Virus record (IMG/VR): IMGVR_UViG_3300030330_004014
Span: 1-29,114 of that record
Strand: one strand, 5' to 3'
Source of the DNA: a virus
Lineage: Duplodnaviria > Caudoviricetes
Length of the DNA: 29,114 nt
Positions 1 to 25,124 of this stretch are shown piece after piece. The notes under the pieces were generated by a model. It was not told the origin of the DNA. It ran no database searches and saw only the letters and a program-made list of their open reading frames with translations. How positions within the stretch are numbered: position 1 is the first letter of the stretch; each line of letters opens with the position of its first letter. The position numbers and the translations under genes were made by a program.

Positions 1-134
1 GCTGGGTCTTTTTCCCCTAACGCCGTTAAACCTTGCACAAGTGACCCGAAAGTTTGACCAATAGCAGCCCCAGCCGGACCACCTAAAGCAGTGCCAATGC
101 CAGCGGCCACGCCTGTTATCATAGATGCCGGATC
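1..134. repeat. Terminal direct repeat, copy 1 (circular assembly overlap)
   Basis: 1-134 is identical to 28981-29114 except A78 vs T29058. The tape measure frame reads through the junction, implying a unit length of 28,980 bp. Confidence 0.95.
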
Positions 135-2072
135 GCTTAATTGAGAAAGGGCATTATCTAATTGATTTAATGCGCCTTGAATTTTATCTACAATAATGGT
201 GGCTTTTATTTCTGTTCTGGCTTTATCTTCAAAAGCCTTTAAACCATTTTCTAAAAGTTTTAATTGAGTTTCAACATCTGGGATCACGCCTTCATTTCTA
301 ATTGTTGTTATCTGTGATCGAATATCAGCTAAACTATTGTTTAACTCTGCATATGGGTCATCTGTTTGATTTAGGCTTGTGTTCAAACCATTGATAGCAA
401 ATTTAATTGATTCAATGTTTGCTAACTGTGTCTGGGTCTTTTGTTCATCTTGTAATTCTGCTTCTGCGTTGTTTTTTGTTTGTTCGCTGTGGTTTATGTT
501 TCTAATTGATCTTTCATTCTCACCATATTTTAAACGTGCTGCATTTAACTCTTTTTCGCCTTTGCCTATAGCTTCATTGATGGCCGTAATTTGTTTTTTT
601 GAAGCTCTGTTTTTTTCTAAAACTTTTAATTGATCTCTTAAAAGCTTTAGGTTTGTTTCATGCTTTTCTATTGCTGCTTTGTCGGCAGCTAAAATAGCGT
701 CTTTCTCTTGTCTTTGTTGATCTAAAAAAATTGCGCTTCTTCTAAGCTCCATGGCTGCTATTTTTGCCAATGCGGCTTCTTTGGCTGTACCCGTTAAACG
801 TTTTGCTATTAGCTTTTGGCGCTCTATTTCTAAATCCAGCATTGCCAGTACATTTGTTTGGATTTTGTTCTGTATGTTTTGTTGTGTTTTTAAAAGGGTG
901 TTTTTTGTTCCGCTTAAGGCGTTGCCTAAAGAAAGCATTTTATTGATTGCGCCTTCTCTATTTCTTTCTCTTGCTTGTCTTCTTGCTCTGGCTGCGGCTA
1001 TTGCTCTTTGTCTTTTTGCGGCTTTTTCTCTTCTTTTTTCTGCGTCTTTTTCTGCTTTTTTGATTTTTTCTAATAAATCCAAGTATTCAAAGGCATCTTC
1101 GGCAGCTGGGCTTTGAGCGTCTTCCGCCGTACCAGATAAACCACCTGTTATTTCGTCAATGCCTTCTCTTGTTTGGGTTAATTCCCTTTGCAAATCTTTA
1201 AGGGATTCTTTTTGGCGATTTGTGTTTGATGTCAGATTGGCCAATGCTGTTGTGAAATTATCATGTGCATTTGTGCCAATTTTAGTCTCTTTGTTTATGT
1301 CTTTTAAATGCTTCCTCTGTATTTTGTTGGCTGCTATATTTCCTTTGATAACTTTAATTTTGTTTTCTAATACAGATGCTTGGGCTTCTTCTGTTTGAAT
1401 CCTTTTTTCAATAAACGCGTCTAATTTTTGACCTATTTCTAAATCTTCACTTTGTCTTTTATGATAGCTTTTTGACGTGCCATTTAATTCATGAATCCGC
1501 AATTCTAAAGCTTTAAAAGTATCTGCCTGGGTATGGTATGCGCTGTTTACTGATCTTTGGGCACTGGCTAAACCTTCTTGTGCTGTTTTAGCTTGATCCA
1601 TTGCAGATTTTAAACGATTTAATTCTTTTTCTTGTCTTTCAATGGCGGCGGTAGATGCTTCAGCGTCATTTGTAAATAAAGCATAAGCGGCGCCAGCGGC
1701 GGCCAAAACAGCTGTTATAATAATCATTTTTTTGCCGAGCAGACTTATAACAGTATTCAATCCTTTAAAAGCAGTAATGGCGGCTCCAACGCCAGCGACC
1801 ATTTTACCGAGCGCAGGGCTAAACATAGAAACCACACGCGAAATTTGGCCCAATCCCCTTCCACCTTGCTGGGCTGAATTTGCCAAATTATCCATAGAAT
1901 TAGAACCAGATTCGGCAGAAGAGCTTAAACGATCCATTGATTCTTCCGCTGCTTCTGCTAATTCTGTGAAGTTTTCCTGTGCAGTATCAACAGTATCAGC
2001 CAACATTTCTAATTGTTCTGTGGCTTCATTTGCAATAATTTCTATGCCATAGCTTACGCTTTCATCTGCCAT
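1..2072 (-). CDS. Tape measure protein, 5' part (continues across the origin to 28389; 887 aa in total)
   Basis: ATG at 2072 (MADESVSYGIEIIANEATEQLEML...). It is in frame with ORF 28389..29102 via the overlap (29102 equals 122; 2072-122=1950). The product is Ala/Gly-rich with hydrophobic and long charged helical stretches, and it precedes the tail-tip genes. It is absent from the ORF track, consistent with running off the window edge. Confidence 0.85.
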   Translation of the reverse strand, partial: MADESVSYGIEIIANEATEQLEMLADTVDTAQENFTELAEAAEESMDRLSSSAESGSNSMDNLANSAQQGGRGLGQISRVVSMFSPALGKMVAGVGAAITAFKGLNTVISLLGKKMIIITAVLAAAGAAYALFTNDAEASTAAIERQEKELNRLKSAMDQAKTAQEGLASAQRSVNSAYHTQADTFKALELRIHELNGTSKSYHKRQSEDLEIGQKLDAFIEKRIQTEEAQASVLENKIKVIKGNIAANKIQRKHLKDINKETKIGTNAHDNFTTALANLTSNTNRQKESLKDLQRELTQTREGIDEITGGLSGTAEDAQSPAAEDAFEYLDLLEKIKKAEKDAEKRREKAAKRQRAIAAARARRQARERNREGAINKMLSLGNALSGTKNTLLKTQQNIQNKIQTNVLAMLDLEIERQKLIAKRLTGTAKEAALAKIAAMELRRSAIFLDQQRQEKDAILAADKAAIEKHETNLKLLRDQLKVLEKNRASKKQITAINEAIGKGEKELNAARLKYGENERSIRNINHSEQTKNNAEAELQDEQKTQTQLANIESIKFAINGLNTSLNQTDDPYAELNNSLADIRSQITTIRNEGVIPDVETQLKLLENGLKAFEDKARTEIKATIIVDKIQGALNQLDNALSQLSDPASMITGVAAGIGTALGGPAGAAIGQTFGSLVQGLTALGEKDP

Positions 2073-2096
2073 TTTATGCCCCACTATTTATTTTTA

Positions 2097-2122
2097 ATCA
2101 TATCACGCTATGTAAGATTAGG
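2097..2122 (-). promoter_or_regulatory. Putative promoter of the tape measure/tail-tip/lysin unit
   Basis: The minus strand reads CCTAAT-N14-TATGAT with an extended -10 TG. The same CCTAAT-N14-TATAAT arrangement precedes terS. Confidence 0.45.
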
Positions 2123-2132
2123 TTAAAAACAT

Positions 2133-2170
2133 AAAAAAGGCAGCGGCTGGTAGGCGTTGCCGCTGCCTTT
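2133..2170 (-). terminator. Rho-independent terminator of the leftward non-structural operon
   Basis: 12-bp stem AAAGGCAGCGGC/GCCGCTGCCTTT ending in a T6 run on the minus strand, just after the stop at 2197. Confidence 0.8.
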
Positions 2171-2196
2171 AAAAGCACGTCCAGGCGCCTACCTTT

Positions 2197-3090
2197 TCAA
2201 TCACCCATGATATCACCAGTTAAGCCACAGTATTTTGAATCATTGTTATGGGTGGATTCTGTGGCGTTTATTGTTGTTTGACTGATTAGACTTTGAATGG
2301 TTTTGGCTGTTTCATGTGCAAAAGCCATGTGTGGGTCTTTTGGTGTGCCAATGTCGTTAATATCGTATTTGGGCTCAACCCCATAAGCCTGTTCTTCCAG
2401 AAGCTGTAACGCTTGTTCCTGTTTTATTTCTTCTGCTGTTGGTTTGCCTTGCCAGTTTAGATATTTTTCGTGGGTGTCTTTGGTGTTATTGATCATGCAG
2501 TCAATAAATTTATGTATTCGATCTGGCGACCATGATAACAACGGCCCAACGGCGTTTAAATAATCCCATTGATCTGTATATTCTATTAAGCGATCTAAAC
2601 CACCGTTATCATCTGCCCATTCTTTAAGCTTTATCAATGCAGCTGTGTTAGACACTGGCTCTGGTGAGTGTGGTTTGTTGTTTTCGTTTGCGTGGTCTTC
2701 TAACTCTTCCACCGTACACAGCCCAATAACGCCACCACAGATCAAGCGTAATGCGCGATTGACAGCGCGTGTTTCTGCCATTCGTTTGTATGCGTTTAGA
2801 ATGGGGCCATTGCATGTTTTAGGACATGCATCACCATGGCCGCTATAGCTTCCAGCCGCTGCGTTAGTGTTTTCCTTACATGGCCCAGCCACTTTAATTG
2901 TGGCTTTTGCTTCTGCTATGCGTTTGTCTCTGTCAATAAAGGTTATTTCTGTGTCAATGCTTACATTAACAAACAAACGGTGAACCAGATACAGTAAACC
3001 AGTTTGTAAAATAAATTCCTTTCCATGATAGGGCATAATGTGGCCGTTATCGCGTAACTCTTGCAGCCAGTTAATTTGTCTTTTTGTCAT
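2197..3090 (-). CDS. Putative single-strand annealing/recombination protein (Rad52/ERF-like)
   Basis: 297 aa with an AGGAG RBS. The N-terminal domain has 'SGHGDA...RMAETRAVNRALR', resembling phage SSAP signatures. Family recalled from memory only. Confidence 0.5.
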   Translation of the reverse strand: MTKRQINWLQELRDNGHIMPYHGKEFILQTGLLYLVHRLFVNVSIDTEITFIDRDKRIAEAKATIKVAGPCKENTNAAAGSYSGHGDACPKTCNGPILNAYKRMAETRAVNRALRLICGGVIGLCTVEELEDHANENNKPHSPEPVSNTAALIKLKEWADDNGGLDRLIEYTDQWDYLNAVGPLLSWSPDRIHKFIDCMINNTKDTHEKYLNWQGKPTAEEIKQEQALQLLEEQAYGVEPKYDINDIGTPKDPHMAFAHETAKTIQSLISQTTINATESTHNNDSKYCGLTGDIMGD

Positions 3091-3095
3091 GTTTT

Positions 3096-3114
3096 CTCCT
3101 GTTGTCGTTTGCTG
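3096..3114 (-). promoter_or_regulatory. Conserved RBS-overlapping leader box
   Basis: mRNA sense CAGCAAACGACAACAGGAG-AAAAC-ATG. 3084-3115 is identical over 32 bp to 8843-8874. Confidence 0.85.
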
Positions 3115-3131
3115 TTTGGGGCTTGTTTCCC

Positions 3132-3146
3132 CTAATCACTATATAG
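3132..3146. promoter_or_regulatory. Palindromic operator-like site (degenerate copy)
   Basis: CTAATCA-C-TATATAG matches CTAnATA-S-TATnTAG with two mismatches and lies just upstream of the leader box. Confidence 0.5.
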
Positions 3147-3560
3147 CTAATTAATCTTATCTAAGCCAACTTTTATTAAATATCTGGAAACCGCGCCTTT
3201 AGTAGATTTATAAAACTTGGCCAGCTTCTGGATCTCCGCATAATCATCATCTGGCAAAACAAACGATATCTGAGCTTTATTCTTTACGCCTCGATCTGGG
3301 CGGCCGCCTTTGCTGACTTTAGCGGGGTGTTTTATGACAGATCCACAGTTATCACAGTTTGTTTCTGTCCAGCCGAAATTATGGCGTTTAAAAATGTAAC
3401 CACAATCTTTGCAATTGATCGCCACCATTAAACGATGATGGGCCAGAATTTCTTTTCCACAGTGCAAGCATTTTGCATTGCTTAAGTTTCCAATTATCGC
3501 GGTGCGCTTTCCGCAATTTCTACAGCGCGTAGTTTCTCTTTCCATTAGTCTATCATCCAT
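3147..3560 (-). CDS. Zn-ribbon plus ribbon-helix-helix DNA-binding protein
   Basis: Four CxxC pairs (CRNC, CLHC, CKDC, CDNC), then GGRP and a CopG/Arc-like pattern 'QISFVLPDDDYAEIQKLAKFYKSTKGAVSRYLI'. Confidence 0.65.
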   Translation of the reverse strand: MDDRLMERETTRCRNCGKRTAIIGNLSNAKCLHCGKEILAHHRLMVAINCKDCGYIFKRHNFGWTETNCDNCGSVIKHPAKVSKGGRPDRGVKNKAQISFVLPDDDYAEIQKLAKFYKSTKGAVSRYLIKVGLDKIN

Positions 3561-3916
3561 TTCATAAAAGACCCATTGTGTAGGGCGTGGGCAAAATCGT
3601 TAGGGCCATCGTCTTTTTTTAAAACCGTTAGTTTTTTTGGCTCTTGATATGTGTTTATTTCTCTGCGTTGTTTGGTTGTTTGGTTTTCTTCGATCTGCTT
3701 TTTTAGCTGTTCATTTTTTATTTTTAGCTTTTTGATCTGTGCGTTTCTTTGATAAACCTTCTGGCGTGCTTTATTTAATGCCATAATTAAATCATGACAC
3801 TGATAACAGCCTTTGGCCTTGGTCAGTTCGTTTAATGCGCCCAACAACTCTAAAGCATTTTCTTTTTTTAAAAAATCCACTATTAGCCTGTAGTTTTCTC
3901 GCTCTTCTTTGGTCAT
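3545..3916 (-). CDS. Hypothetical coiled-coil protein
   Basis: 123 aa, AAGGAGG RBS, ATGA overlap with the upstream gene, one CxxC. Confidence 0.7.
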   Translation of the reverse strand: MTKEERENYRLIVDFLKKENALELLGALNELTKAKGCYQCHDLIMALNKARQKVYQRNAQIKKLKIKNEQLKKQIEENQTTKQRREINTYQEPKKLTVLKKDDGPNDFAHALHNGSFMKWMID

Positions 3917-4644
3917 TTGGCCTCCTTATCCATTTGGATTATTTCCATTTTTTTAATTCGGCTTGGCATTAGAGCGATCAGATCCAATGTATCAGCGCGA
4001 TATTTTGCCCATGTTTTTTGGCCGTTCATGTCGGTGATAATGACCACTTTTTCATGATTAGAAAAAAGGCTTATCTGCTTTTCTTCTGGTTTTTTTTTAG
4101 GCAGCTGGGCGGCGCTTTTTGCTTTAAGCTCTAAAACATTGGATTTTAACGGGGCTGCTTTTGGTTCTTCTTTTTCTGGTTTGTCGAAAAGGATATCTGT
4201 GATCCATTTGTAACGGTCAACAGGTTTAACATTATGTTTTCTTATTCTGTTTGCTGGAATGGTGAGCCAGAAAACATAGCGGCTGGATTTTGTGGCTGGA
4301 TTGGTGGCAAATAAATGATTTTTATCCAGTGCCTTTGTGGCAAAATCAGCCAAATCATAGTCAACCATCACATAAAGACAGAGCTTAACCAGGCTTTTGG
4401 TTATTTGGCGTGCTTGTTTAGTATCTGCCAAGCCTGTTGGATTTAAACGGCTGTGGGTGGCTCTTAAAATGCTGTTTATGCTGAAGGTCCTGTAGCGCGT
4501 GTTTCTGTATTGCCATTCTATGGTTTTTAATATTTCATTGGTGCAATAAATCAGCCTGTCTTTGTTGCTGCCAGCGTGCTTGGCATACTCCGCAAAAAAG
4601 GCCGCTATGTTTTCTTTGGTTTCGTGTTCTGGGTATTTTGGCAT
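3913..4644 (-). CDS. Hypothetical protein (start revised to 4644, MPKYPEHE...)
   Basis: The leader box with AAGGAG at 4654-4672 precedes the ATG at 4644. The ORF-track start at 4722 overlaps the upstream gene. Confidence 0.7.
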   Translation of the reverse strand: MPKYPEHETKENIAAFFAEYAKHAGSNKDRLIYCTNEILKTIEWQYRNTRYRTFSINSILRATHSRLNPTGLADTKQARQITKSLVKLCLYVMVDYDLADFATKALDKNHLFATNPATKSSRYVFWLTIPANRIRKHNVKPVDRYKWITDILFDKPEKEEPKAAPLKSNVLELKAKSAAQLPKKKPEEKQISLFSNHEKVVIITDMNGQKTWAKYRADTLDLIALMPSRIKKMEIIQMDKEAK

Positions 4645-4653
4645 CTGTTTGAT

Positions 4654-4672
4654 CTCCTTATGTCGTTTGCTG
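4654..4672 (-). promoter_or_regulatory. Conserved RBS-overlapping leader box
   Basis: CAGCAAACGACATAAGGAG, which contains the TAA stop of the upstream gene (ending QQTT*). Confidence 0.85.
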
Positions 4673-5233
4673 TGGTGCTGTGATTTTGTAACGCTTTTGA
4701 ATCTCCAATGGTATCGGGCCATTATTCAAATGGCTGTAGCCTTGACGGTAATGGCGACAATAATAACCCCAATGATCTGGGCTTTGCCATTCCTTTGGGA
4801 ACGGTATAACGCTGTAGATGGAGGGATACAGCGCGTATAGCATTGGCCAGCGGTTTAACCAGCCTTGCAAAAGCTTTACACTGTCACCCGATAGGCTGCT
4901 TTCTTCTGCTGTCGTTATTGGCTCTGGGCTGGGCTCTGTTTCTGGCTTTTGTTGGACAATCGGCGCCGCTTTCGGTCTGTTTGGGCGTTGGGTTCTTATG
5001 ATCCAAGCTTGTAAACGGTTCTGCCAATCCTCACGCCACCAAAACGCCTTTTTGGGGTTCTTCTGTAGGTATTGATCGATAGCATTGAATTCATAGACCA
5101 GATCTAAATCATTGGGATTTTGGAGCCCGTCCATGTAGGTTTTAAGGTCTTCACTACTTATTGAATTAAGATTATTATTATTTATTATATTATATATAAT
5201 ATTATATATATATACAGAATTAGAATCTGTCAT
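4658..5233 (-). CDS. Hypothetical protein, possible replication initiator
   Basis: First gene of the leftward operon. Its Y/I/N low-complexity N-terminus and 'EDWQNRLQAWI' resemble the linker and C-terminal DW..W motif of phage replisome organisers. The resemblance is weak. Confidence 0.4.
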   Translation of the reverse strand: MTDSNSVYIYNIIYNIINNNNLNSISSEDLKTYMDGLQNPNDLDLVYEFNAIDQYLQKNPKKAFWWREDWQNRLQAWIIRTQRPNRPKAAPIVQQKPETEPSPEPITTAEESSLSGDSVKLLQGWLNRWPMLYALYPSIYSVIPFPKEWQSPDHWGYYCRHYRQGYSHLNNGPIPLEIQKRYKITAPQQTT

Positions 5234-5238
5234 TTTCT

Positions 5239-5260
5239 CTCCTTTTGATATTCGTTTGCT
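5239..5260 (-). promoter_or_regulatory. Leader box variant
   Basis: AGCAAACGA-ATAT-CAAAAGGAG-AGAAA-ATG, i.e. the box with a 4-nt insertion. Confidence 0.65.
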
Positions 5261-5267
5261 TTTTCGC

Positions 5268-5311
5268 TTGACGCGTAAAGTCTACATAGTATGTAGATAT
5301 AGACAAGTCAA
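5268..5311. promoter_or_regulatory. Overlapping divergent promoters centred on a perfect palindrome
   Basis: Plus strand TTGACG(5268)-16-TATGTA; minus strand TTGACT(5311)-17-TATGTA. The two candidate -10 hexamers are the arms of TCTACATA-G-TATGTAGA (5281-5297). The -10 matches are imperfect. Confidence 0.6.
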
Positions 5312-5338
5312 CAAAACAGCAAAAGAAAAGGAGTTATC

Positions 5339-5434
5339 ATGACATTAAACGAGCTATGGGCAGACATTAAAGAAATAAATTGGGCAGAAATGGCGGCGCT
5401 GGTTTGCTTCATTTATGCAGCTATGCTAATCTAA
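5339..5434 (+). CDS. Small hydrophobic peptide, 31 aa (MTLNELWADIKEINWAEMAALVCFIYAAMLI)
   Basis: AAAGGAG RBS 5 nt before the ATG and a C-terminal hydrophobic helix. Below the ORF-track size cut-off. Confidence 0.65.
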   Translation: MTLNELWADIKEINWAEMAALVCFIYAAMLI

Positions 5435-5482
5435 TGATGACATTTAAGGGCGGTGGCATCTGCTCCTTTTGTCGTTTGCTGG

Positions 5483-5515
5483 GGTGGCTCGGATAGTCCG
5501 GGCCACCTATTCTTT
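5483..5515 (+). terminator. Hairpin/terminator
   Basis: GGTGGCTCGGA-TAG-TCCGGGCCACC (11-bp stem, one G-U) followed by TATTCTTT. Confidence 0.7.
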
Positions 5516-5534
5516 AAAAACATTGGACGTGTTT

Positions 5535-6014
5535 ATGGATTTGCAAAAGCTCACCAGCTTATCACGCTGGCGTTTGCCCATATTTAATGGAAAAGTACAT
5601 ATCGAAGGCCGCATTTTATCAGTTTCTGAAGCAGAAACCAGCGGTTTAGCTTCTGGTTTATTGTTGGCGACCATGGCCAGCCCAGAAGTTTTAGCCAAAA
5701 CCGCTTCTTTAAAAACAGAAGAAGAAAAGACAGCGGCAATTATTCGCATGTCAAAAAATATAAGCGCCGCCCAGATATCTAAACTTAACGAGGCCAATGA
5801 TTTAATTATCTGTAAAGTAATAAAGATGGCCAGCTTAGATGGCGGTAAAAACTGGCAAAAAATACAAATAGTCGCGGCAGAAGAGCAACAGGACCATGAA
5901 CAAAACCGTTTATGGGTTGGCGTACTAAATGAAAAAGACAGAGACGCAATTTTAGAAAAAGCCTTAGAAGGGCATAAGGAGGCCGTAACGCGTATTGCCT
6001 CCTTTCCAGGCTGA
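5535..6014 (+). CDS. Putative tail assembly chaperone (gpG-like)
   Basis: 159 aa from ATG 5535, followed by an overlapping short ORF of gpT-like character. The call rests on the pair architecture, and the location is atypical. Confidence 0.5.
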   Translation: MDLQKLTSLSRWRLPIFNGKVHIEGRILSVSEAETSGLASGLLLATMASPEVLAKTASLKTEEEKTAAIIRMSKNISAAQISKLNEANDLIICKVIKMASLDGGKNWQKIQIVAAEEQQDHEQNRLWVGVLNEKDRDAILEKALEGHKEAVTRIASFPG

Positions 6015-6228
6015 TAAAGACTATCTAAACATGCTGGATATAGTGGCTTCTAATTATGGGGTTTTACCTTCACAGGTGGCCCAGTTAGATTGGAAAGATT
6101 TAGCGGTTTGTGTTGCTGCTTTGCGTACCAGAAACGACAGACTAAACAAGCTGATTAAAAAAACCACGCGCAAAAAAACAACGATTTTTCCCACTTTAAA
6201 TCTAAGTGATTTGATTAACAGTTTGTGA
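5995..6228 (+). CDS. Putative tail chaperone extension (gpT-like), probably reached by frameshift
   Basis: 'IVASNYGVLPSQVAQLDW' resembles the ..G..PS.. pattern of gpT domains. It is in the +1 frame and lacks a clear RBS. Confidence 0.5.
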   Translation: MPPFQADKDYLNMLDIVASNYGVLPSQVAQLDWKDLAVCVAALRTRNDRLNKLIKKTTRKKTTIFPTLNLSDLINSL

Positions 6229-6231
6229 AAG

Positions 6232-6257
6232 CCTAATTTCTATGGCATTTGTATAAT
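6232..6257 (+). promoter_or_regulatory. Putative promoter of the terminase unit
   Basis: CCTAAT-N14-TATAAT with a consensus -10, 18 nt before the ATG at 6276. Confidence 0.5.
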
Positions 6258-6275
6258 ATAAAAAAAAGGGTTAAT

Positions 6276-6710
6276 ATGGCCAGGCCGTCTAAATTTGATA
6301 AAGAGAAATTGGATCTGATTTGCAAAGCGGTAGAAGTCGGAGCCACACGCAAACTGGCAGCCATGGCCGCTGGAATTGATGTTAGTACGCTATATGCTTG
6401 GCTTCAAAAAGGTAGAAATAGCACAGATCAAAACTGTCTTTTTAAAGAGTTTTCAGATCGAATAAAAAAGGCTGAAGGTTTCAGCGCTTTGCGTGATCTG
6501 TCGATTATTACAGCTGCATCAGAAACAGACTGGCGGGCAGCCGCTTGGCGATTAGAAAGGCGTCATGGTTATGTGGTTGGCCAATCGCACCAAATAGAAG
6601 CGCCGATAGAGGCCAATGAGTTAGACATAAAAACACTTATGGAAGAAATAAAAGAAAGTGATAAACTTATTTCTAAACTGTCTGGGCCAGTGATAGATTT
6701 AGAGGAATAA
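6276..6710 (+). CDS. terS: Terminase small subunit (HTH)
   Basis: Starts 'MARPSKF', has HTH 'AAMAAGIDVSTLYAWL' and 'DWRAAAWRLERR', and lies upstream of terL. Confidence 0.8.
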   Translation: MARPSKFDKEKLDLICKAVEVGATRKLAAMAAGIDVSTLYAWLQKGRNSTDQNCLFKEFSDRIKKAEGFSALRDLSIITAASETDWRAAAWRLERRHGYVVGQSHQIEAPIEANELDIKTLMEEIKESDKLISKLSGPVIDLEE

Positions 6711-6713
6711 AAA

Positions 6714-6962
6714 ATGCCAGAAAAAACATGGTTACAAAAAACTCCATTGACATCAAAAAAGTTTCTTTTTGCTTCAGCAGTTAATTTTATTTGGCTGCTG
6801 TTGATTGGATTTGGCATTAGTCGCGAACTGAGCCCAGAAACGCTTAACGCTATGATCTATTCAGCCGCTTTAACCCAGAGCCTTTATCTGGGTGGCCAAT
6901 CGGCTGTTGATGCGTTTGTTAGGGGTGCTTTTGCCAGATCAAGACCAGACCCAAAAGAATAA
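6714..6962 (+). CDS. Small two-TM membrane protein, holin-like
   Basis: 82 aa with GAGGA RBS. 'LTSKKF' is followed by two hydrophobic segments and a charged C-terminus. Confidence 0.55.
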   Translation: MPEKTWLQKTPLTSKKFLFASAVNFIWLLLIGFGISRELSPETLNAMIYSAALTQSLYLGGQSAVDAFVRGAFARSRPDPKE

Positions 6963-8475
6963 ACCTGATTTAGTCAAGGCGTTAAAAAAACGCCAAGCTC
7001 TAATAAGCATAGCCAAAAAATATCCTTTGGCCGTTGCGCGTTTGTGGGTTCCGCATTGCTGCCGCTGGGATGGTAAAGGCGAAAACAGCCCACGCGCCAA
7101 GGGCTGTGGCCAGCCCATGGAAAGGTTAGGGCCAAACCGCTGGATTTGTAGATCATGCCAAATAACTGAACAGCGCACAAGCCAAATAGAAGCCTTTCAC
7201 AATTTAGATAAAATTAATTCTATTTTGTGCAGTGGCGGCAATAGAGCCGGAAAAACCCAATGTGGGGCCATGCTGGCAGTGGCCAAGGCGGCTGGTTCAG
7301 ATCAATGGTGGGTTAAAGAATGGCTTAAGCTTAACGATCTGCCACCTGATTTAATACAGCCTGGACCCACTACAGTTTGGGCCTCTGCTCTGTCCTATTC
7401 TGATTCATTGGCATATGTCAGACCAAAAATAACTGAATATCTACCCCATGATACCATTTTTAAAAACTGGCATGGACCAGGCAGAAGCCAAGTGATTTTA
7501 AAAAATGGTGGGCGCATTGTTTCCATGTCTGCCGATTCTGGGCGCGAAAAATATCAAGGTGCTGGTGGTGGCCCAATACCGTTATCAATGGTTTGGCTGG
7601 ATGAAGAACACAATAACAGTATCCATCAAGAATGTTTAATGCGGCTGGTAGATTTCAAGCAGGTCCATAACGGTAAAAAATACACTGGATTTACCTTCTT
7701 AACGATGACACCATTAAAAGGCGTGACGTGGCCCCATGCCCTTTACATTGAAAATGAAGATCCAGCCTTTAAACATGTAAACATTAGTGGGTTGGATAAT
7801 CCTTGGATAAGCTCGGCGCTTCTCTATAAGGCCGTTAGCCATATGTCCGAAGAAGCCAAGGCCAGCCGCCTACATGGTTCTTTCACAAATCAACAAGGCG
7901 TGGTTTATTCGTCGTTTGATAAAAACATCCATGTCATAAAAGCCCACGATCCTAAACCAGATTGGTCTATTGATCTGGCTTTTGATTTTGGGGTCCGTAA
8001 CCCGTTTTGCTGCCTTGCTTTTGGATACGATCACAAAGACGATTGTTTACATGTATTGGCTGAGTTTTTCCAGACAGAAAGAACCACCATCCAAAACGGT
8101 TTAGAAGTCAAAAAACGATTTAAAAAATATTTGACCCACCCAAATTACCGTTGGGCTGTAGCTGATCCAGAATCATTGGATGCCAGAAGAACCTTAGCCA
8201 ATAACTGTGGAATCGAAACGGTTAAGGCTCCAAAATATCTGGGGGTAATTGACACCATTAATTTAGTTATGCAGCGTTTAGCTCTAAATGCTGAAGGTAA
8301 GCCAGCGTTATACATCCATGATAACTGTGTAAATCTGCTTAAAGAGTTTCGTCTTTATCGCTGGCAAGAAAACACCACAGGAAAAGACAAGCCAAAAAAA
8401 GTTAATGATCATGGCTTGGACTGTTTGCGCTATCAAGTCGCTTTTTTAGATAAGTGGCTTAAATATCAGTCTTAG
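6892..8475 (+). CDS. terL: Terminase large subunit (true start may be ATG 6910 or TTG 6931)
   Basis: Walker A GGNRAGKT, Walker B VWLDEE, coupling motif TMTP, and RNase H-like nuclease residues (AFDFG, ADPE, NDHGLDCLRY). Confidence 0.95.
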   Translation: MANRLLMRLLGVLLPDQDQTQKNKPDLVKALKKRQALISIAKKYPLAVARLWVPHCCRWDGKGENSPRAKGCGQPMERLGPNRWICRSCQITEQRTSQIEAFHNLDKINSILCSGGNRAGKTQCGAMLAVAKAAGSDQWWVKEWLKLNDLPPDLIQPGPTTVWASALSYSDSLAYVRPKITEYLPHDTIFKNWHGPGRSQVILKNGGRIVSMSADSGREKYQGAGGGPIPLSMVWLDEEHNNSIHQECLMRLVDFKQVHNGKKYTGFTFLTMTPLKGVTWPHALYIENEDPAFKHVNISGLDNPWISSALLYKAVSHMSEEAKASRLHGSFTNQQGVVYSSFDKNIHVIKAHDPKPDWSIDLAFDFGVRNPFCCLAFGYDHKDDCLHVLAEFFQTERTTIQNGLEVKKRFKKYLTHPNYRWAVADPESLDARRTLANNCGIETVKAPKYLGVIDTINLVMQRLALNAEGKPALYIHDNCVNLLKEFRLYRWQENTTGKDKPKKVNDHGLDCLRYQVAFLDKWLKYQS

Positions 8476-8481
8476 AAAATG

Positions 8482-8518
8482 AAAAAGCCCCAGCGTTAAC
8501 TAAGGCTTTTTATTTTTT
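8482..8518. terminator. Probable bidirectional terminator
   Basis: AAAAAGCC...GGCTTTTT between the convergent terL and 8556..8849. Confidence 0.65.
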
Positions 8519-8555
8519 CGATGTCAAAAAACTTTTTATTACTAAAATTTATAGT

Positions 8556-8849
8556 TTAATCATTTATCTCCTTATGCAGCTGGCTTATCAAGCCTTTATG
8601 GGTTGGGTTAAAATAATCTTTCCACTGTGCCAGATTATAAATCTTTACACCGTCTGCCAGTTCTACACAAAAGCGTTTTTTTGTTTTTACGCCTTTTGGT
8701 GTGGTGGTTGTGACGTTTAAGCGGTGAATAACCTTTATGTGAGCTTCAGCGCCGCCCACAAATCCATTTAAGCCATTCAAGTCTTCCGCTATTTTGTAGC
8801 AGCCTTTCAATGTGAGGGTATATTTTGATTTTTGTTTGGTGGTTGTCAT
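8556..8849 (-). CDS. Hypothetical protein, stand-alone cassette
   Basis: 97 aa with its own palindrome, leader box with AGGAG, and terminator. Confidence 0.75.
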   Translation of the reverse strand: MTTTKQKSKYTLTLKGCYKIAEDLNGLNGFVGGAEAHIKVIHRLNVTTTTPKGVKTKKRFCVELADGVKIYNLAQWKDYFNPTHKGLISQLHKEIND

Positions 8850-8854
8850 GTTTT

Positions 8855-8889
8855 CTCCTGTTGTCGTTTGCTGTCTATATAGTATTTAG
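8855..8889 (-). promoter_or_regulatory. Leader box (8855-8873) and adjacent palindrome (8875-8889)
   Basis: CAGCAAACGACAACAGGAG and CTATATA-G-TATTTAG. Confidence 0.8.
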
Positions 8890-8940
8890 TCAATAAAAAG
8901 GGACTATGCCAATTTATTTTTAAGTATTTTTATTTTTTTT

Positions 8941-8972
8941 AAAATGCGGCAAAAAAAAGATCGTGGTAAATA
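8941..8972 (+). promoter_or_regulatory. Putative late promoter, copy 1
   Basis: AAAATGCGGCAAAAAAAAGATCGTGGTAAATA, nearly repeated at 15001-15034. Confidence 0.6.
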
Positions 8973-8999
8973 TAGGCATGGACCCAACATGGTTAATTT

Positions 9000-9419
9000 A
9001 TGGACCCGATTTTAAACGCTCTGGTAGATTATGGCATAGCTGGCCTTTTTTTAATTTATATGATTTGGACTAAACAAAAAGACCAGAGCCGATCTGATGC
9101 CATGCGCGTTGGATATGAAGAGAAATTGGAACGGCTACAAAAAGAAAGCCAAGATAATCAAGAAAAAATAAGAGAGCGTTATCGTGAGGTCGTGGAAAAA
9201 TACGATCTTCAAATAAAAGAGTATAGCGTAGAAAGGCAGGTACAGATTCAAACCTACGCAGAAGAGCGCCAAGCGGCCAGGCGTAAAGAGCTTGAACAGA
9301 AACAAGAAATAGACCAAACTTTAAAAGAAATAAAAAAAGAAGTGGGTGAAAATGGCAAGTCGATAACAAGACTTCAAACCCAGTTAGAAAGCGTCATGTT
9401 AAGGTTTAGCACTAATTAA
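9000..9419 (+). CDS. Membrane-anchored coiled-coil protein (holin/BhlA-like)
   Basis: N-terminal TM 'YGIAGLFLIYMIW' followed by a long charged coiled coil. Confidence 0.55.
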   Translation: MDPILNALVDYGIAGLFLIYMIWTKQKDQSRSDAMRVGYEEKLERLQKESQDNQEKIRERYREVVEKYDLQIKEYSVERQVQIQTYAEERQAARRKELEQKQEIDQTLKEIKKEVGENGKSITRLQTQLESVMLRFSTN

Positions 9420-9436
9420 AACATGGACGTTAAAAA

Positions 9437-9835
9437 ATGAATCTTAACACCTTATCTGTTAAAAACTATGACACAATAGCAATAACAAACGCTTGGGATG
9501 CCAACAGGTCTAAAGAAATTGGCATAGACGTAAACGGCCACCAGGCTATTTTTACTGGAAACATTCAAGGCGTTTACATAAACTGTGATAGCATTGTGAC
9601 CGCCAAATCTATCACCATTTGTATCACTAAAGATGCAGCTGGGGATAACATCATTTTACCAGATACATTGGCTTCACTTTCATATGGTAAAACAACGATA
9701 ACTAACGGCGCTGCTGTTTGGAAAGTCGATTTAGACGCCACGATCACAAATAAAATTGTTTACTTGCATTTCAAGACAGATGCTGGCACTTTAAATATCA
9801 ATAAAATAAAATTAGTTTATAGGAGGCTTGGATAA
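9437..9835 (+). CDS. Putative virion structural protein
   Basis: 132 aa, beta-rich composition, co-oriented with the fibre gene. Confidence 0.55.
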   Translation: MNLNTLSVKNYDTIAITNAWDANRSKEIGIDVNGHQAIFTGNIQGVYINCDSIVTAKSITICITKDAAGDNIILPDTLASLSYGKTTITNGAAVWKVDLDATITNKIVYLHFKTDAGTLNINKIKLVYRRLG

Positions 9836-10084
9836 ATGCCCATATCAGATATTTTTAATCAAGCTTCTTCTGTTTTAAAAGTAGAAGATTTAACCAGCCA
9901 GTGTAATGGATCGCGGCAGGTTTTTACCATATCAGAAGCTTTTGATTCGTCATCTCTCCGCGTGTACTGGAACGGCATACGGCAAACCACGACAGAAATT
10001 GTAGTAGAATCATCTCTAACTTTTTCCACTACTTTTACACCAGCCACAGGCGCTCCGCTTGTGGCGGAATTTTACACGCTATAA
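9836..10084 (+). CDS. Small virion/fibre-associated protein
   Basis: 'VYWNGIRQ...TFTPATGAPLVAEF' resembles the C-terminal domain of the next gene ('VFRNGLR...TFGAAPNTDKIVVDY'). Confidence 0.55.
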   Translation: MPISDIFNQASSVLKVEDLTSQCNGSRQVFTISEAFDSSSLRVYWNGIRQTTTEIVVESSLTFSTTFTPATGAPLVAEFYTL

Positions 10085-10099
10085 ACAAGGGGTTTTAAA

Positions 10100-11983: not shown

Positions 11984-12020
11984 AAATTGGGTTTATCCTT
12001 TGAGCAGTCGGGTAACCTGT

Positions 12021-12050
12021 GGCGGGCCATTAATTTGGCCCGTCACTTTT
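12021..12050 (+). terminator. Terminator of the fibre unit
   Basis: GGCGGGCCA-TTAATT-TGGCCCGTC followed by ACTTTT. Confidence 0.7.
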
Positions 12051-12105
12051 CCACAGAGTTTTCCACAGAGTTTTCCACAGGTTATTGATAAGTCTATGGA
12101 AAACT
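12047..12105 (+). repeat. Array of DnaA-box-like repeats, copy A
   Basis: TTTTCCACA at 12047, 12059 and 12071 (12-bp period), then GGTTATTGATAAGTC and an inverted near-box TATGGAAAA (12095-12103). Confidence 0.85.
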
Positions 12106-12124
12106 AAAACAGGCAGGTAGTAAA

Positions 12125-12397
12125 ATGGAGCCACTTAAATATCTTGACAACCTTTTTAGATCGTTGGGCAATAGAAACAAATGGGATAGCTGGACGTTTA
12201 TCTTCCGTCTTCTGGATGGTGGCCACTTAAAAATGAAAGACGTTTATGATGTGGGTGAATCGTTAGGCTATGAAAAAGCATTAATCGATATTAGGCGAAA
12301 ACAATATCTGGATAAAATGACGCCAGACCAAAAGCGATCCAAAAAAAGCAGAGCCAATAAAAGATTAAAAACAGAAATAAAAAAGTTTTGTAGCTAA
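12125..12397 (+). CDS. Hypothetical basic protein
   Basis: 90 aa with a K/R-rich C-terminus and a purine-rich RBS, directly after the box array. Confidence 0.65.
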   Translation: MEPLKYLDNLFRSLGNRNKWDSWTFIFRLLDGGHLKMKDVYDVGESLGYEKALIDIRRKQYLDKMTPDQKRSKKSRANKRLKTEIKKFCS

Positions 12398-13575: not shown

Positions 13576-13625
13576 TCCTTTGGTGGGCTTAAAATCAATA
13601 TGGCTGTATTTATCAGGAACAGCCT

Positions 13626-14858: not shown

Positions 14859-14947
14859 TTTTTATTCTCCATTTTGTTTTGAATCTATCACAAGATTAGA
14901 AGGCCAATAACCCTTAAATCAAAATGATGGCTAATAAATTAGCGCGC

Positions 14948-14962
14948 CCATATAGTATTTAG
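14948..14962. promoter_or_regulatory. Palindromic operator-like site
   Basis: CCATATA-G-TATTTAG in the divergent portal/protease intergenic region. Confidence 0.6.
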
Positions 14963-15000
14963 CTCAAACCGTCAAGGAATAAATTAATTTTTTTTAATAA

Positions 15001-22052: not shown

Positions 22053-22633
22053 TCGTTAAAAAGCTTTTGGCTTTCTGCGTTGTCAATACAATAAACCTCT
22101 ATCTTTATACCATTCCAGCCTTCAGTTTTAGTTAAATGGTCATAACTACAAAAAACCTTTTTTGATTCAATGGCATAAACTTGGTTATCATCATTTAAAA
22201 CCACTTCAGCCAAGGCATCCACATAAAGTTTGTCTAAATTATCCAGATCGGGTTTAACTGTGTGGGCTATAAAGCCTGGATCTGATTTGGCTTTTTTTAA
22301 ACGCTGTGGCCTTGGGAAAACATAAAGCATTTTTAAACTAACGCCTATTCCTTTCGGGATAAAAAGGTTTCTGCTGTCGCTCCAATGTTGCAATTTGATG
22401 GTGTTTACTGCTGTGTTTTTTCCATTTTTATATTTTGCAGATCCATAAAAAGCTCTGGCCTTTCCATTTTTAACGGCCACGCTGTGCCTAACTTGGGCCA
22501 CTGGCGGCCCAGCTATTAAATATTGACCAGCTTTTTTAGTCACCCGTCCAATTGCTACCTGCTCTGGGGCCATATCCACAGGGTTTATTTTTTGCTTTTT
22601 GTTTTCTTTGTTTTGCATTTTGAAAAAATCCAT
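22037..22633 (-). CDS. rusA: RusA-family Holliday junction resolvase
   Basis: 'VFPRP...KPDLDNLDKLYVDAL...NDDNQV' catalytic signature. Confidence 0.9.
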   Translation of the reverse strand: MDFFKMQNKENKKQKINPVDMAPEQVAIGRVTKKAGQYLIAGPPVAQVRHSVAVKNGKARAFYGSAKYKNGKNTAVNTIKLQHWSDSRNLFIPKGIGVSLKMLYVFPRPQRLKKAKSDPGFIAHTVKPDLDNLDKLYVDALAEVVLNDDNQVYAIESKKVFCSYDHLTKTEGWNGIKIEVYCIDNAESQKLFNDYLPW

Positions 22634-23366
22634 AAATTATTTCTACAATGTCACCAGTAATAACATCAGGCATAAAAGGAAAAATTGAAAGGTTCGCTGG
22701 ACAAAATGAAAGGGCATAACTTAACTCAATGGCTAACCATGGCGCTAAATCATAACGGTCTTTTAGATATGTTCTGATTAGCTGTTGGGGGTGATTTAAA
22801 AATAAACCCATTTCTAAATCATGTTTAATATCTAACAAATGCCAGTTAACAATTTTGCTGTAAGCTATCCATTTTTCCGCATCATATTTAAACTGGTATC
22901 CATTAAAATAATAGTGATCATCTTTTGATAATCCTGTAACCTGCTTGCAAAATGCTTTAAAATCTTCTGGCTTTATGTCGGCGCTAAATAAAACATGGTC
23001 TGGTGTTACATTTTTGATGTATTGCCAATGGACAGACGCCAGAGCTTTATTTATTAAACCGCGTTTGTATTTTTCTGTTTTGTTATCGTTTAATATCAAT
23101 CTTAATTTCTTTTGGTAATAGCTGGTTAGGGCTAACGCTAAAGCTGGGTTATCTTCTGTTTTATGTGGGTTTCTCACGCTGGTTACAATGTCATAGATTC
23201 GACATTTAACACCAGGATATCTTTCACCCATGCGCCAAATCCCATCATATTTATCTATGATCACAAAATGGGGGCCATGTGGCTCGCCATTGTCAGACCA
23301 TTTAACGCTTTTAACGCTTTTAATTGCTTTTAAGTCTTTGACTACCATGTCAATAAAGGGCGTCAT
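22536..23366 (-). CDS. Hypothetical protein
   Basis: 276 aa preceded by a leader box with AAGGAG. No recognised motif. Confidence 0.75.
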   Translation of the reverse strand: MTPFIDMVVKDLKAIKSVKSVKWSDNGEPHGPHFVIIDKYDGIWRMGERYPGVKCRIYDIVTSVRNPHKTEDNPALALALTSYYQKKLRLILNDNKTEKYKRGLINKALASVHWQYIKNVTPDHVLFSADIKPEDFKAFCKQVTGLSKDDHYYFNGYQFKYDAEKWIAYSKIVNWHLLDIKHDLEMGLFLNHPQQLIRTYLKDRYDLAPWLAIELSYALSFCPANLSIFPFMPDVITGDIVEIIYGFFQNAKQRKQKAKNKPCGYGPRAGSNWTGD

Positions 23367-23371
23367 GTTTT

Positions 23372-23390
23372 CTCCTTATGTCGTTTGCTA
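23372..23390 (-). promoter_or_regulatory. Conserved RBS-overlapping leader box
   Basis: TAGCAAACGACATAAGGAG-AAAAC-ATG, beginning with the upstream gene's TAG stop. Confidence 0.85.
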
Positions 23391-24098
23391 AAAAAGGGTT
23401 TTTTGTTGGTGTGCGTTTATGCAAAAAAGTTTTTCAACATTATGGCCAGTTTGAATGTTGGCTTTTGCTTCTACTAAAAATTCAAATGGTAACCAATTAG
23501 CGTTATCGCCTTTACAAACAATAACCGTTCCATTTCTGTTTTTTGCCCAGATAGATAAATGGGCATAATCAATTTTATTATGTGGGTAGGCGTATCCTTT
23601 TTCTTGATATGGGGGATCAATAAACCAATATCCATTATGATTTTCCAATTGTTCGTAAGATTTATTGGTTATTTGCCAATGTTTTATAAAGTTAACTTGG
23701 CTTGCAATCATTCTTTTTTTATTTTCAGACCAGAATTGGTTTTTATATCTTGGATCTTTAGCCCATTTTGACAGTGTTTTAGATGGGTGTGAATTACCTT
23801 TATTCAAATTAAACCCAATTAAATGTTTAGCCTCTTGACATATTTTTAAATCATCAACATTTTGGCCAATTTCTAAAATTGGTAAATCCAAAATATCTTT
23901 TGAGCTTGATTTAATTAAAAAATCCCAGATACCATAAATCACAGGATTCAAATCATTTAAGATTATCTTTCTGTTGTAATATCGCAATAAAAAACAAGCT
24001 GAACCAGCAAAGGGCTCTATTATTGTGTCATGTTTTGGATTTGGGTATTTTTTGGCGATTCTGTATTTTGAGCCATAGTAACTAAAAAAAGGCCTCAT
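23388..24098 (-). CDS. DNA N6-adenine methyltransferase (D12/Dam class)
   Basis: 'FSYYGSK', 'EPFAGS', 'NDLN' and catalytic 'DPPY'. Confidence 0.88.
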   Translation of the reverse strand: MRPFFSYYGSKYRIAKKYPNPKHDTIIEPFAGSACFLLRYYNRKIILNDLNPVIYGIWDFLIKSSSKDILDLPILEIGQNVDDLKICQEAKHLIGFNLNKGNSHPSKTLSKWAKDPRYKNQFWSENKKRMIASQVNFIKHWQITNKSYEQLENHNGYWFIDPPYQEKGYAYPHNKIDYAHLSIWAKNRNGTVIVCKGDNANWLPFEFLVEAKANIQTGHNVEKLFCINAHQQKTLF

Positions 24099-24103
24099 TT
24101 TTT

Positions 24104-24122
24104 ATCCTTATGTCGTTTGCTG
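24104..24122 (-). promoter_or_regulatory. Conserved RBS-overlapping leader box
   Basis: CAGCAAACGACATAAGGAT-AAAAA-ATG, containing the upstream TAA (protein ends QQTT*). Confidence 0.85.
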
Positions 24123-25124
24123 TGATTCTAATATACCGCTTTTTATTATTTGTTCAAAAACAAATTGGGCGCATTGTGGAACAATAGCGTTACCCAATGC
24201 TTTTAACTTAGCCACCCGATTGGGAACCCCATCATCTCCTCTACAAAATGCGGGTTGAGTCGGGAAGTTTTCCCAATTGTTTTTTGTGTTAAGCCTTGCA
24301 TTTTCGCCAATTCTACATTTAAGCAGTCTTTTCTTTTCCATTGGCTCGGTGTGGATGGATTGTTTTTGGCTGTGTTTGCTGTCATAGTCGGCAGCATCCT
24401 TAACGCTGTGGCCAGTTTGGGCGTGCTGACTTTCCCAGCTGCTTTTCTCTTTAGAAAGCCTTCTATTGATTCGTCTGTCATTGCTGAAGCTCTGGGCGTT
24501 GGTAATAATGCTTGATTCAACATGTAAACCAATGGGCGGCCGCCTTGGGCAAACTTCTTTTTTCTTTCCATGTGTAATGGCGTTGGTGTTGGTAAAAGGC
24601 CGTCTCTTGTTAATGCGTGTTTTGGTAACCCCAACGCAAAACCATCTTTTTCTAAGGTGTGGCGCTCCGAATTGTGCAGCCGATATAATCGACCATTCGC
24701 AGTCATACCCGATTTTGGCAAGGCTTCCAATAACTGTGGGGCCACCCACATTAGTGATGTTTGGGACATTTTCCATGACAACGATTCTGGGTCTAATGTC
24801 GCTAATAATGCGGAGCATTTCAAACCATAAACTCGACTTTTCACCATTTTCTACACCTTTTTGTAAACCTGCCACGCTAATGTCTTGGCAAGGAAAACCA
24901 CCTATTAAAATATCTACTGGATCAACGTTTTTAACTTCTCTAATATCGCTATATAAAACCGCTTCTGGCCAATGCTTCTTTAAGATCGTTTGGCAAAATG
25001 GGTTTTGTTCGATCTGCCAGCTAACTTTATGATCTATGCCAGCATTATCAAAAGCCCATTGGAGGCCAAGCTCAAAACCACCAATCCCAGAAAAACAGGA
25101 GCCTATTTTATAAACGTGATCCAT
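24108..25124 (-). CDS. DNA cytosine-C5 methyltransferase, large (alpha) polypeptide
   Basis: Motifs I (FSGIGG), IV (GFPCQ), VI (ENV), VIII (HLRKRWF) and X (LGNAIV). No motif IX is evident in this frame. Confidence 0.92.
   Translation of the reverse strand: MDHVYKIGSCFSGIGGFELGLQWAFDNAGIDHKVSWQIEQNPFCQTILKKHWPEAVLYSDIREVKNVDPVDILIGGFPCQDISVAGLQKGVENGEKSSLWFEMLRIISDIRPRIVVMENVPNITNVGGPTVIGSLAKIGYDCEWSIISAAQFGAPHLRKRWFCVGVTKTRINKRRPFTNTNAITHGKKKEVCPRRPPIGLHVESSIITNAQSFSNDRRINRRLSKEKSSWESQHAQTGHSVKDAADYDSKHSQKQSIHTEPMEKKRLLKCRIGENARLNTKNNWENFPTQPAFCRGDDGVPNRVAKLKALGNAIVPQCAQFVFEQIIKSGILESQQTT
24203..24847 (-). CDS. Nested alternative-frame C5 methyltransferase small (beta) polypeptide
   Basis: 214 aa wholly inside the alpha gene, with repeated LPTP units and a motif IX-like end 'RLNPHFVEEMMGFPIGW'. 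Confidence 0.75.
   Translation of the reverse strand: MVKSRVYGLKCSALLATLDPESLSWKMSQTSLMWVAPQLLEALPKSGMTANGRLYRLHNSERHTLEKDGFALGLPKHALTRDGLLPTPTPLHMERKKKFAQGGRPLVYMLNQALLPTPRASAMTDESIEGFLKRKAAGKVSTPKLATALRMLPTMTANTAKNNPSTPSQWKRKDCLNVELAKMQGLTQKTIGKTSRLNPHFVEEMMGFPIGWLS

Follow-up and report, generated by a model that had tools for sequence, protein, structure and literature searches.

The 19-nt sequence at 5463-5481 of an uncultured phage genome may be the 3' seed of a rightward RNA of ~215 nt that pairs in trans with the ribosome-binding sites of the leftward genes, with gene 3913..4644 as its main target and a regulon of box-bearing genes beside it; on the sequence comparisons presented here, the chances that this reading is right are about even. 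The proposal is built on direct observations: the seed is complementary to the boxes ahead of leftward start codons, a terminator-like hairpin follows it on the plus strand, the arrangement recurs in the same order in four lineages, and in each of them the anti-box follows the boxes of its own genome. A wider picture, to which we give somewhat less than an even chance, is that uncultured phages of ~30 kb tag their leftward (early) cistrons with a box and silence all of them with one terminator-anchored antisense RNA from the late leader, that tag and anti-tag co-evolve within each lineage, and that in a sister clade the anti-tag has moved into a 25-nt terminator loop.

Genome setting

The window, i.e., the whole stretch of DNA analysed, corresponds to one complete IMG/VR virus record (29,114 bp; completeness estimate, 93%). 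PHROG and Pfam scans place the start of the rightward block at 5339. This block holds terS (6249), terL (6892), a tail-fibre-like gene, protease- or capsid-like genes and a major capsid gene (15041, 15969), and adaptor and tail genes; portal and head-morphogenesis genes lie inside it but on the opposite strand. The leftward block runs from 5233 down to 3 and, if the genome is circular or permuted, continues from 29114 to 22037; it encodes RusA, two DNA methyltransferases and an endolysin-like protein, its remaining proteins being mostly unannotated by PHROG and Pfam. Judging from this gene order, the leftward genes would be the early genes, and the region around 5463-5481 would be transcribed on the plus strand.

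Neither an integrase or repressor family nor a Q-type antiterminator family was matched by the 38 ORFs compared with PHROGs and the 22 compared with Pfam, most of which matched nothing; the PHROG comparison likewise gave none of the 38 ORFs a RegA or RegB label, and a tRNA search was negative. Positions 4000-9000 gave no megablast match to GenBank phages, and TerL is at most 25% identical to that of cultured phages (tblastn), so the phage has no model relative. TerL relatives are present in 174 IMG/VR stretches, many of them contigs of ~30 kb, which indicates a large uncultured phage family. In the close relative G001, the contig is broken within terL (ends L062/L063), consistent with a circular or permuted genome of ~29.7 kb. 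A TerL fragment 51% identical to that of the window is encoded on a 1-kb contig from the bin of a Puniceispirillales (SAR116) MAG, a weak hint at the host; apart from this contig and distant matches, alignment of TerL to genome contigs returned nothing, and the 159-aa protein encoded behind the terminator has no relative among genome contigs.

A further leftward gene, 3147..3560 (minus strand), encodes a 137-aa protein with two CxxC...CxxC zinc-ribbon motifs and a C-terminal segment (ISFVLP..., two helices) that by eye resembles a ribbon-helix-helix. All four lineages compared below encode this protein (37-56% identity); as a candidate DNA-binding protein, it might regulate either the switch region or read-through at the terminator.

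A box family ahead of leftward genes

The 19-nt box CAGCAAACGACAAAAGGAG has six matches in the window, all on the minus strand: an exact copy at 5463-5481, copies with one mismatch each at 3096, 4654 and 8855, and copies with two mismatches each at 23372 and 24104. Dinucleotide-preserving shuffles of the window contained such matches in 0 of 100 cases. Five copies stand directly ahead of the ATG of real genes (Table 1); the sixth, the orphan at 5463-5481, precedes just a 12-codon ORF. Two looser copies, at 5239-5260 on the minus strand and 5317-5333 on the plus strand, extend the count of the original prediction, which had been drawn from the letters of this DNA and their open reading frames.

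Several boxes are interlocked with coding sequence. The TAA "variable triplet" of the 4654-4672 box is the stop codon of the upstream cistron, and the TAA triplet of the 24104-24122 box is that of the upstream C5 methylase gene. A box-encoded QQTT closes two unrelated proteins, 4658..5233 and 24108..25124, because the box overlaps their stop codons. Likeness also reaches beyond the box: genes 2197..3090 and 8556..8849 have start regions (3083-3114 and 8842-8873) with the same 32 nt, beginning just ahead of the box and ending with ATGACAA, and the 23372 start region has GGAGAAAACATGAC in common with the 3096 and 8855 regions. These three target start regions are alike over 14-32 nt outside the stretch that would pair with the RNA, so another homogenising force must also act. 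Taken together, such patterns point either to strong nucleotide-level selection on the boxes or to their spread as cassettes.

The exact box pattern is found in 52 IMG/VR stretches, in more than one copy only in the close relative; the box is private to the lineage. The box is absent from all plus-strand structural genes of the window, which argues against a general translation enhancer, and this interpretation was rejected. The same holds for a promoter, since the box adjoins the Shine-Dalgarno sequence, some copies are operon-internal and the TATATAG-like elements are found further upstream, and for a lambda nut-like site, since the hairpins vary between sites.

TATATAG-like elements, akin to the TATAG at 5298-5302, are found upstream of several boxes. 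A AATACTATATAG-like element recurs 1-25 nt upstream of several boxes (window 8874-8893 and 3125-3140; lineage L068 2583-2600 and 9995-10012) and is probably the promoter -10 region of this family; if so, some boxes would form the extreme 5' end of their mRNAs.

Table 1. Features of the predicted switch region and of the box-bearing start regions (positions in the window)
Feature	Position	Strand	Remarks
Box before gene 2197..3090	3096..3114	-	Duplex -29.4 kcal/mol; orthologue box-bearing in 4/4 lineages
Box before gene 3913..4644	4654-4672, in start region 4630..4676	-	Best predicted target; plus CAGATGCC at start codon
Variant box AGCAAACGAATATCAAAAGGAG, longer by 3 nt, before the first leftward gene (4658..5233)	5239..5260	-	Duplex -26.9 kcal/mol
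Putative rightward promoter, TTGACG-16 nt-TATGTA	5268..5295	+	Found by reading the sequence; TATAG element next to it at 5298-5302
Palindrome (8+1+8), TCTACATA-G-TATGTAGA	5281..5297	.	Between the divergent units, overlapping their two putative -10 regions
Box-like leader and Shine-Dalgarno of small ORF, CAGCAAAAGAAAAGGAG	5317..5333	+	Predicted cis partner of the anti-box (MFE pairs with 5463-5481)
31-codon ORF, MTLNELWADIKEINWAEMAALVCFIYAAMLI, hydrophobic C-terminus	5339..5434	+	Changes relative to close relatives mostly synonymous
12-codon micro-ORF, MPPPLNVIIRLA	5421..5459	-	Behind orphan box; ATG 5459-5457, stop 5423-5421
Anti-box ("seed"), GCATCTGCTCCTTTTGTCGTTTGCTG	5456..5481	+	Core 5463-5481; extension to 5456 complements CAGATGC at the 3913..4644 start codon
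Intrinsic-terminator-like hairpin (5482-5508) and T-rich tail	5482..5518	+	12 pairs, 8 G-C
159-aa gene	5535..6014	+	ATG ~17 nt past terminator tail; first gene of block leading to terminase genes
Box before gene 8556..8849	8855..8873	-	Duplex -29.4 kcal/mol
Box before gene 22536..23366	23372..23390	-	Duplex -28.8 kcal/mol; first bases TAG, the upstream stop codon
Box before gene 23388..24098 (D12-class methyltransferase domain)	24104..24122	-	Duplex -26.7 kcal/mol

A predicted leader RNA ending in an anti-box and a terminator

Read on the plus strand, the orphan is CTCCTTTTGTCGTTTGCTG, followed immediately by GGGTGGCTCGGATAGTCCGGGCCACCT and then by ATTCTTTAAA. The hairpin 5482-5508 is the strongest plus-strand terminator-like site in a scan of bases 1-15000, although its T tail is interrupted (ATTCTTTAAA). 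The original prediction had described this layout, with an orphan that precedes no substantial gene and lies directly before a terminator hairpin, together with the mismatch counts of the six copies; the pattern search and the hairpin scan agree with it, as they do with two of its finer points, that the orphan triplet AAA differs by a single base from TAA as well as from ACA and that the first-position mismatch at 23372 (T for C) would give a G-U pair.

The predicted transcript would start at a promoter near 5268-5295, run through the box-like leader, the 31-codon ORF and the anti-box, and end at the terminator hairpin (5482-5518). This promoter is not listed by a consensus promoter scan, which missed it because the -10 hexamer is weak. 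The palindrome at 5281..5297 is a possible operator; its sequence is not conserved in the distant lineages L068, L077 and L091, which have other short palindromes at the same place. The small peptides have no PHROG match. No Rfam family, C4 included, reaches its gathering score in the whole window, and at 5200-5600 just three chance-level matches (Phe_leader, snoRNA, miRNA) appear with E up to 5. A classical attenuator was set aside on inspection: the only alternative to the 12-bp terminator stem is a 6-bp helix (GGTGGC/GCCACC).

The terminator is followed directly by the 159-aa and terminase genes, so the anti-box would be part of all rightward transcripts, whether terminated or read-through, and rising rightward (late) transcription would therefore shut the leftward genes down. 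In the cell, pairing would block 30S binding or trigger decay. Because the leader of the RNA is itself box-like, the seed would fold back onto the ribosome site of this RNA as well; small-ORF translation might thereby be limited and the seed be masked in part.

Conservation across lineages

The comparison rests on four independent lineages; some patterns in it were recognised only in retrospect. The window group includes the close relatives G001, L075 and L078, in which the 159-aa protein is 89-100% and the element 97-100% identical; the distant lineages L068 (= L074, L076, L093), L077 (= L092) and L091, found by searches with TerL and the 159-aa protein, are 58-61% identical to the window in TerL and 55-62% in the 159-aa protein. 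All four lineages have the leftward gene order in common and, at the switch region, the same succession of a divergent promoter region, a leader of 150-220 nt, the anti-box, a terminator 0-5 nt on, and the 159-aa gene, whose ATG lies ~15-20 nt past the terminator. The hairpins of L068, L077 and L091 are followed by runs of 4-7 T. Changes in the terminator stem of L075 are T-G wobbles, which pair only in plus-strand RNA and are A-C mismatches in minus-strand RNA.

The box itself differs between lineages: CAGCAAACGACA..AGGAG in the window, CAGCAAACAACTAA in L068, CAGCAAACAACAACAG in L091 and ACAACAACAAC in L077. It precedes the orthologue of 2197..3090 in all four and that of 3913..4644 in three. 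In a four-by-four comparison, each orphan is closest to the boxes of its own lineage. Mean orphan-box identity over 19 nt is 17.6, 15.5, 14.3 and 13.7 within lineages and 6.8-15.0 between them; the longest exact runs are 13, 16, 16 and 11 nt within and at most 11 nt between.

As a minus-strand ribosome site, the orphan has an intact Shine-Dalgarno sequence in the window only; at this position L068 has GAAAGA, L077 GAAGA and L091 GCCAAT. The G-to-A changes in the L068 and L077 orphans keep G-U pairing with the targets possible. Counterparts of the micro-ORF have 12, 11, 6 and 31 codons and unrelated sequences. The protein of the small plus-strand ORF is conserved, with its hydrophobic tail, in three lineages (31, 31 and 24 codons): the L068 ORF has 31 codons and is 40% identical, the L077 ORF has 24. 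In L091 the small ORF is absent or degenerate, but the anti-box and terminator are kept. Bulging out of the predicted cis helix in both genomes, the middle of the anti-box (CGACA in the window, CAACTAA in L068) is shared with the distant boxes but not with the RNA's own leader. The L068 orphan and its paralogue differ by indels between conserved blocks; conserved blocks split by indels or diverged stretches fit selection on pairing better than recent conversion or copying.

Homologues of the 159-aa protein (38-40% identical) are encoded within structural operons in two family members of greater distance, L095 (19942-20433) and L097 (12187-12690), with no leader or terminator ahead of them. The setting of these homologues suggests that the protein is probably a virion or assembly protein, and the lack of a leader and terminator there that the leader module is specific to one sub-family.

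A sister clade (L065, L066, L067, L070; TerL ~49% identical) has a different box, AACAAAGGACA...ATG. Its plus-strand terminator (L066 5495-5543) is preceded by a gene for a 60-aa ribbon-helix-helix-like protein and followed by a TTGACA-17-TATAAT promoter; between members, the 12-bp stem has two compensatory pair changes and one G-T wobble that pairs on the plus strand only. A conserved 25-nt loop, TTTGTTGTTGTC..TTGTTCTTTGT, complements the start-region box of that clade, and the L066 loop, when scored against the box start regions, comes 10th among 11,446 windows; two higher sites, when examined, proved to be antisense strands of other start regions. This parallel, which was noticed after the fact and involves low-complexity sequence, is supportive only. 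The sister clade also has a palindromic CAATATAGTATATTG as the counterpart of the AATACTATATAG-like element.

Predicted pairing and targets

When the 26-nt seed (5456-5481) is ranked against 39 start regions of the window, the six box genes take the first six places (-38.1 to -26.7 kcal/mol; median, -13.8), with the RNA's own leader 8th (-20.7 kcal/mol). The strongest pairing is predicted with gene 3913..4644, whose start region comes first at -38.1 kcal/mol, or -50.2 kcal/mol with a longer stretch; here pairing resumes past a 6-nt loop into CAGAUGCC at the start codon, and none of 1000 seed shuffles reaches the observed energy. Further predicted targets are 2197..3090, 4658..5233, 8556..8849, 22536..23366 and 23388..24098. 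The seed is itself paired in the predicted folds, at an opening cost of ~17.8 kcal/mol in the full RNA and 15.8 kcal/mol in a 3' fragment, yet the net duplex energy after opening is still favourable for all six targets. The mismatches between the window orphan and five targets have no G-U bias, with G-U at one of the seven mismatched positions.

The preference for 3913..4644 recurs in the relatives: in 4/4 lineages, the 5' region of its orthologue is among the top one or two matches of the seed, with a locus-wide rank of 1 among 9,044 windows in L068, 2 among 9,607 in L077 and 2 among 14,258 in L091. Composition-preserving seed shuffles reach the observed energy in 0-1 of 1000 cases for each of eight seed/orthologous-5'-region pairs. 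The L068 orthologue pairs with 52 nt of the RNA, in four blocks across its start region and first codons. The L091 orthologue has no box at its start; instead, the seed matches codons 4-14 in two blocks, leaves the Shine-Dalgarno sequence of the target uncovered, and scores almost as high as with its top match, the box of the 2197..3090 orthologue.

The predicted interactions thus look like one main target (3913..4644) plus a box regulon rather than six equal targets. The boxes, as expected, lead the ranking of 39 start regions, and in relatives the anti-box follows the boxes of its own lineage. As to the central claim of the original prediction, a single antisense RNA acting on many cistrons, the complementarity, the plus-strand context and the conserved position give it partial support, with the complementarity extending furthest into 3913..4644 and its orthologues.

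Alternative explanations

A feature that the original prediction did not include, the pairing of the anti-box with the RNA's own box-like leader in predicted folds of the window and L068, opens a different reading: the anti-box could act in cis only, in a 5'-3' helix that hides the ribosome site of the small ORF or stabilises the RNA, its match to the other boxes being a by-product of leaders being alike. Both MFE and centroid folds contain this helix in the window and L068 (z-scores, -2.9 and -3.3), with GGAGAATGCC in the L068 leader pairing with the anti-box GGCATTCT. Inert full-length type I toxin mRNAs have a long-range helix enclosing a small hydrophobic ORF, and the helix-enclosed ORF predicted here resembles them by analogy. 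A hok-like helix over the small-ORF ribosome site is predicted in the window and L068, but the L077 fold puts the seed in a local hairpin instead, and L091 keeps the anti-box without a small ORF or a leader partner in its predicted fold. In the window, moreover, the anti-box fits the distant boxes better than its own leader, with 18/19 contiguous positions versus 7+8 bp and a bulge and with -26.7 to -38.1 versus -20.7 kcal/mol; the bulged central bases change with the distant boxes in both the window and L068, and a C-to-G change in the L075 leader breaks one predicted pair without compensation. Pairing in cis alone is therefore improbable as a full account, though the leader/anti-box helix may be part of the mechanism, in self-limitation of the small ORF or in masking of the seed. 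Less improbable, if still unlikely, is that the orphan belongs to the box family and has no antisense role: the family would be held together by a shared factor acting on minus-strand sense RNA or on DNA (for instance a translational repressor of the phage, a DNA-binding regulator or contact with the ribosome) or by gene conversion or cassette recombination, and the orphan would be a gene start that was retained or has decayed, or else a protein site located beside the terminator by chance. The orphan and the boxes are direct repeats in DNA, so that gene conversion, too, could make them follow each other. All copies have one orientation, hairpin-then-box modules are found at real gene starts as well (window 3096; L077 6731; L091 3959 and 18939), target start regions are alike over up to 32 nt, start codon included, and the boxes override the ends of coding sequences, as in the QQTT of two unrelated proteins; the conserved zinc-ribbon and ribbon-helix-helix-like protein 3147..3560 is a candidate for the regulator. 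Such a reading must, however, contend with a position beside a plus-strand terminator that is kept in four lineages, with an orphan whose Shine-Dalgarno sequence and micro-ORF have decayed in three of the four while the box part stays exact, and with the indels between conserved blocks in L068, which fit selection for pairing better than recent conversion. It also lacks an evident source of minus-strand transcription: gene 8556..8849 has a terminator-like hairpin of its own (8511-8482). Against the antisense reading, a weak minus-strand promoter-like site at 5832-5805 (9/12 consensus matches) is a candidate source of leftward transcription across the orphan.

The leader might, finally, serve an antitermination-controlled late operon and nothing else, as a terminated RNA comparable to the lambda PR'-tR' 6S RNA with a functionless anti-box. 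The terminator does lie directly before the first gene of the terminase-leading block in 4/4 lineages, so expression of the block needs read-through. This account is very improbable: it leaves unexplained an exact, lineage-following box copy in all four lineages, and the scanned ORFs include no Q-type antiterminator family. Such a leader is compatible with the antisense seed proposed here.

Comparison with known RNA regulators

P4 CI RNA is made from an operon leader and pairs both in cis and in trans. Together with the c4 RNA of P1 and P7, it is among the phage antisense RNAs described as pairing with short sites that are repeated in phage transcripts, in the case of c4 around a ribosome-binding site (PMC12197685). 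Like these RNAs, the window RNA complements at least two short phage-mRNA sites at ribosome-binding regions, namely six start regions. It differs from P1 c4 and P4 CI, which act on one or two sites in one operon, in that its predicted targets are six cistrons in at least three places of the genome; their pairing sites are in stem-loops, whereas the seed here abuts a terminator. Unlike the C4 family, the window has no Rfam C4 match.

T4 RegA, a translational repressor protein, and RegB, an endonuclease that cuts at GGAG, shut off many early messages via a common feature of the ribosome-binding region. The predicted outcome is similar here, with the agent predicted to be an RNA rather than a protein. 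In the type I toxin-antitoxin pairs IstR-1/tisB, OhsC/shoB and OrzO/zorO, regulator and target are divergent and non-overlapping, with ~19-23 nt of complementarity near the ribosome site of the target. The window resembles them in that regulator and target would be transcribed divergently from neighbouring promoters without overlap and with complementarity of similar length, but the small hydrophobic ORF lies on the regulator RNA and not on the target, and the targets encode proteins of 97-297 aa and a methyltransferase. A terminator hairpin with a U tail, interrupted in the window, is also a feature of terminator-anchored base-pairing sRNAs, whether Hfq-type or 3'-end-derived.

StxS and lambda 6S are short PR' transcripts that end at tR' before the late genes, and such a transcript is a regulatory sRNA in Stx phages (PMC7547250, PMC12197685). 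In sequence alone, the arrangement in the window is like a PR'-tR' leader, with the terminator at 5482-5518 ahead of the ATG at 5535, terS at 6249 and terL at 6892; unlike the lambda late leader, it comes with no Q antiterminator recognised in the window. The targets of StxS are host rpoS and stx1, whereas the predicted targets of the window RNA are the phage's own leftward cistrons, reached via a start-region tag. A non-exhaustive literature search found no description of a phage sRNA with a multi-cistron start-region regulon.

Implications

To our knowledge, the phage antisense RNAs described so far act at one or two sites each, and where several early genes are known to be shut off together, the agents, T4 RegA and RegB, are proteins. 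If the proposed mechanism is true, the change from early to late expression would be controlled very economically by one RNA recognising an address label common to many ribosome sites, and the silencing RNA would be produced automatically with each transcription of the late operon. It would also explain why some phages have long identical leaders before unrelated genes. Because label/anti-label pairs differ between related phages, they could serve as independent, portable translational switches, and as lineage-specific pairs they would provide a natural data set for the co-evolution of a regulator RNA and its regulon.
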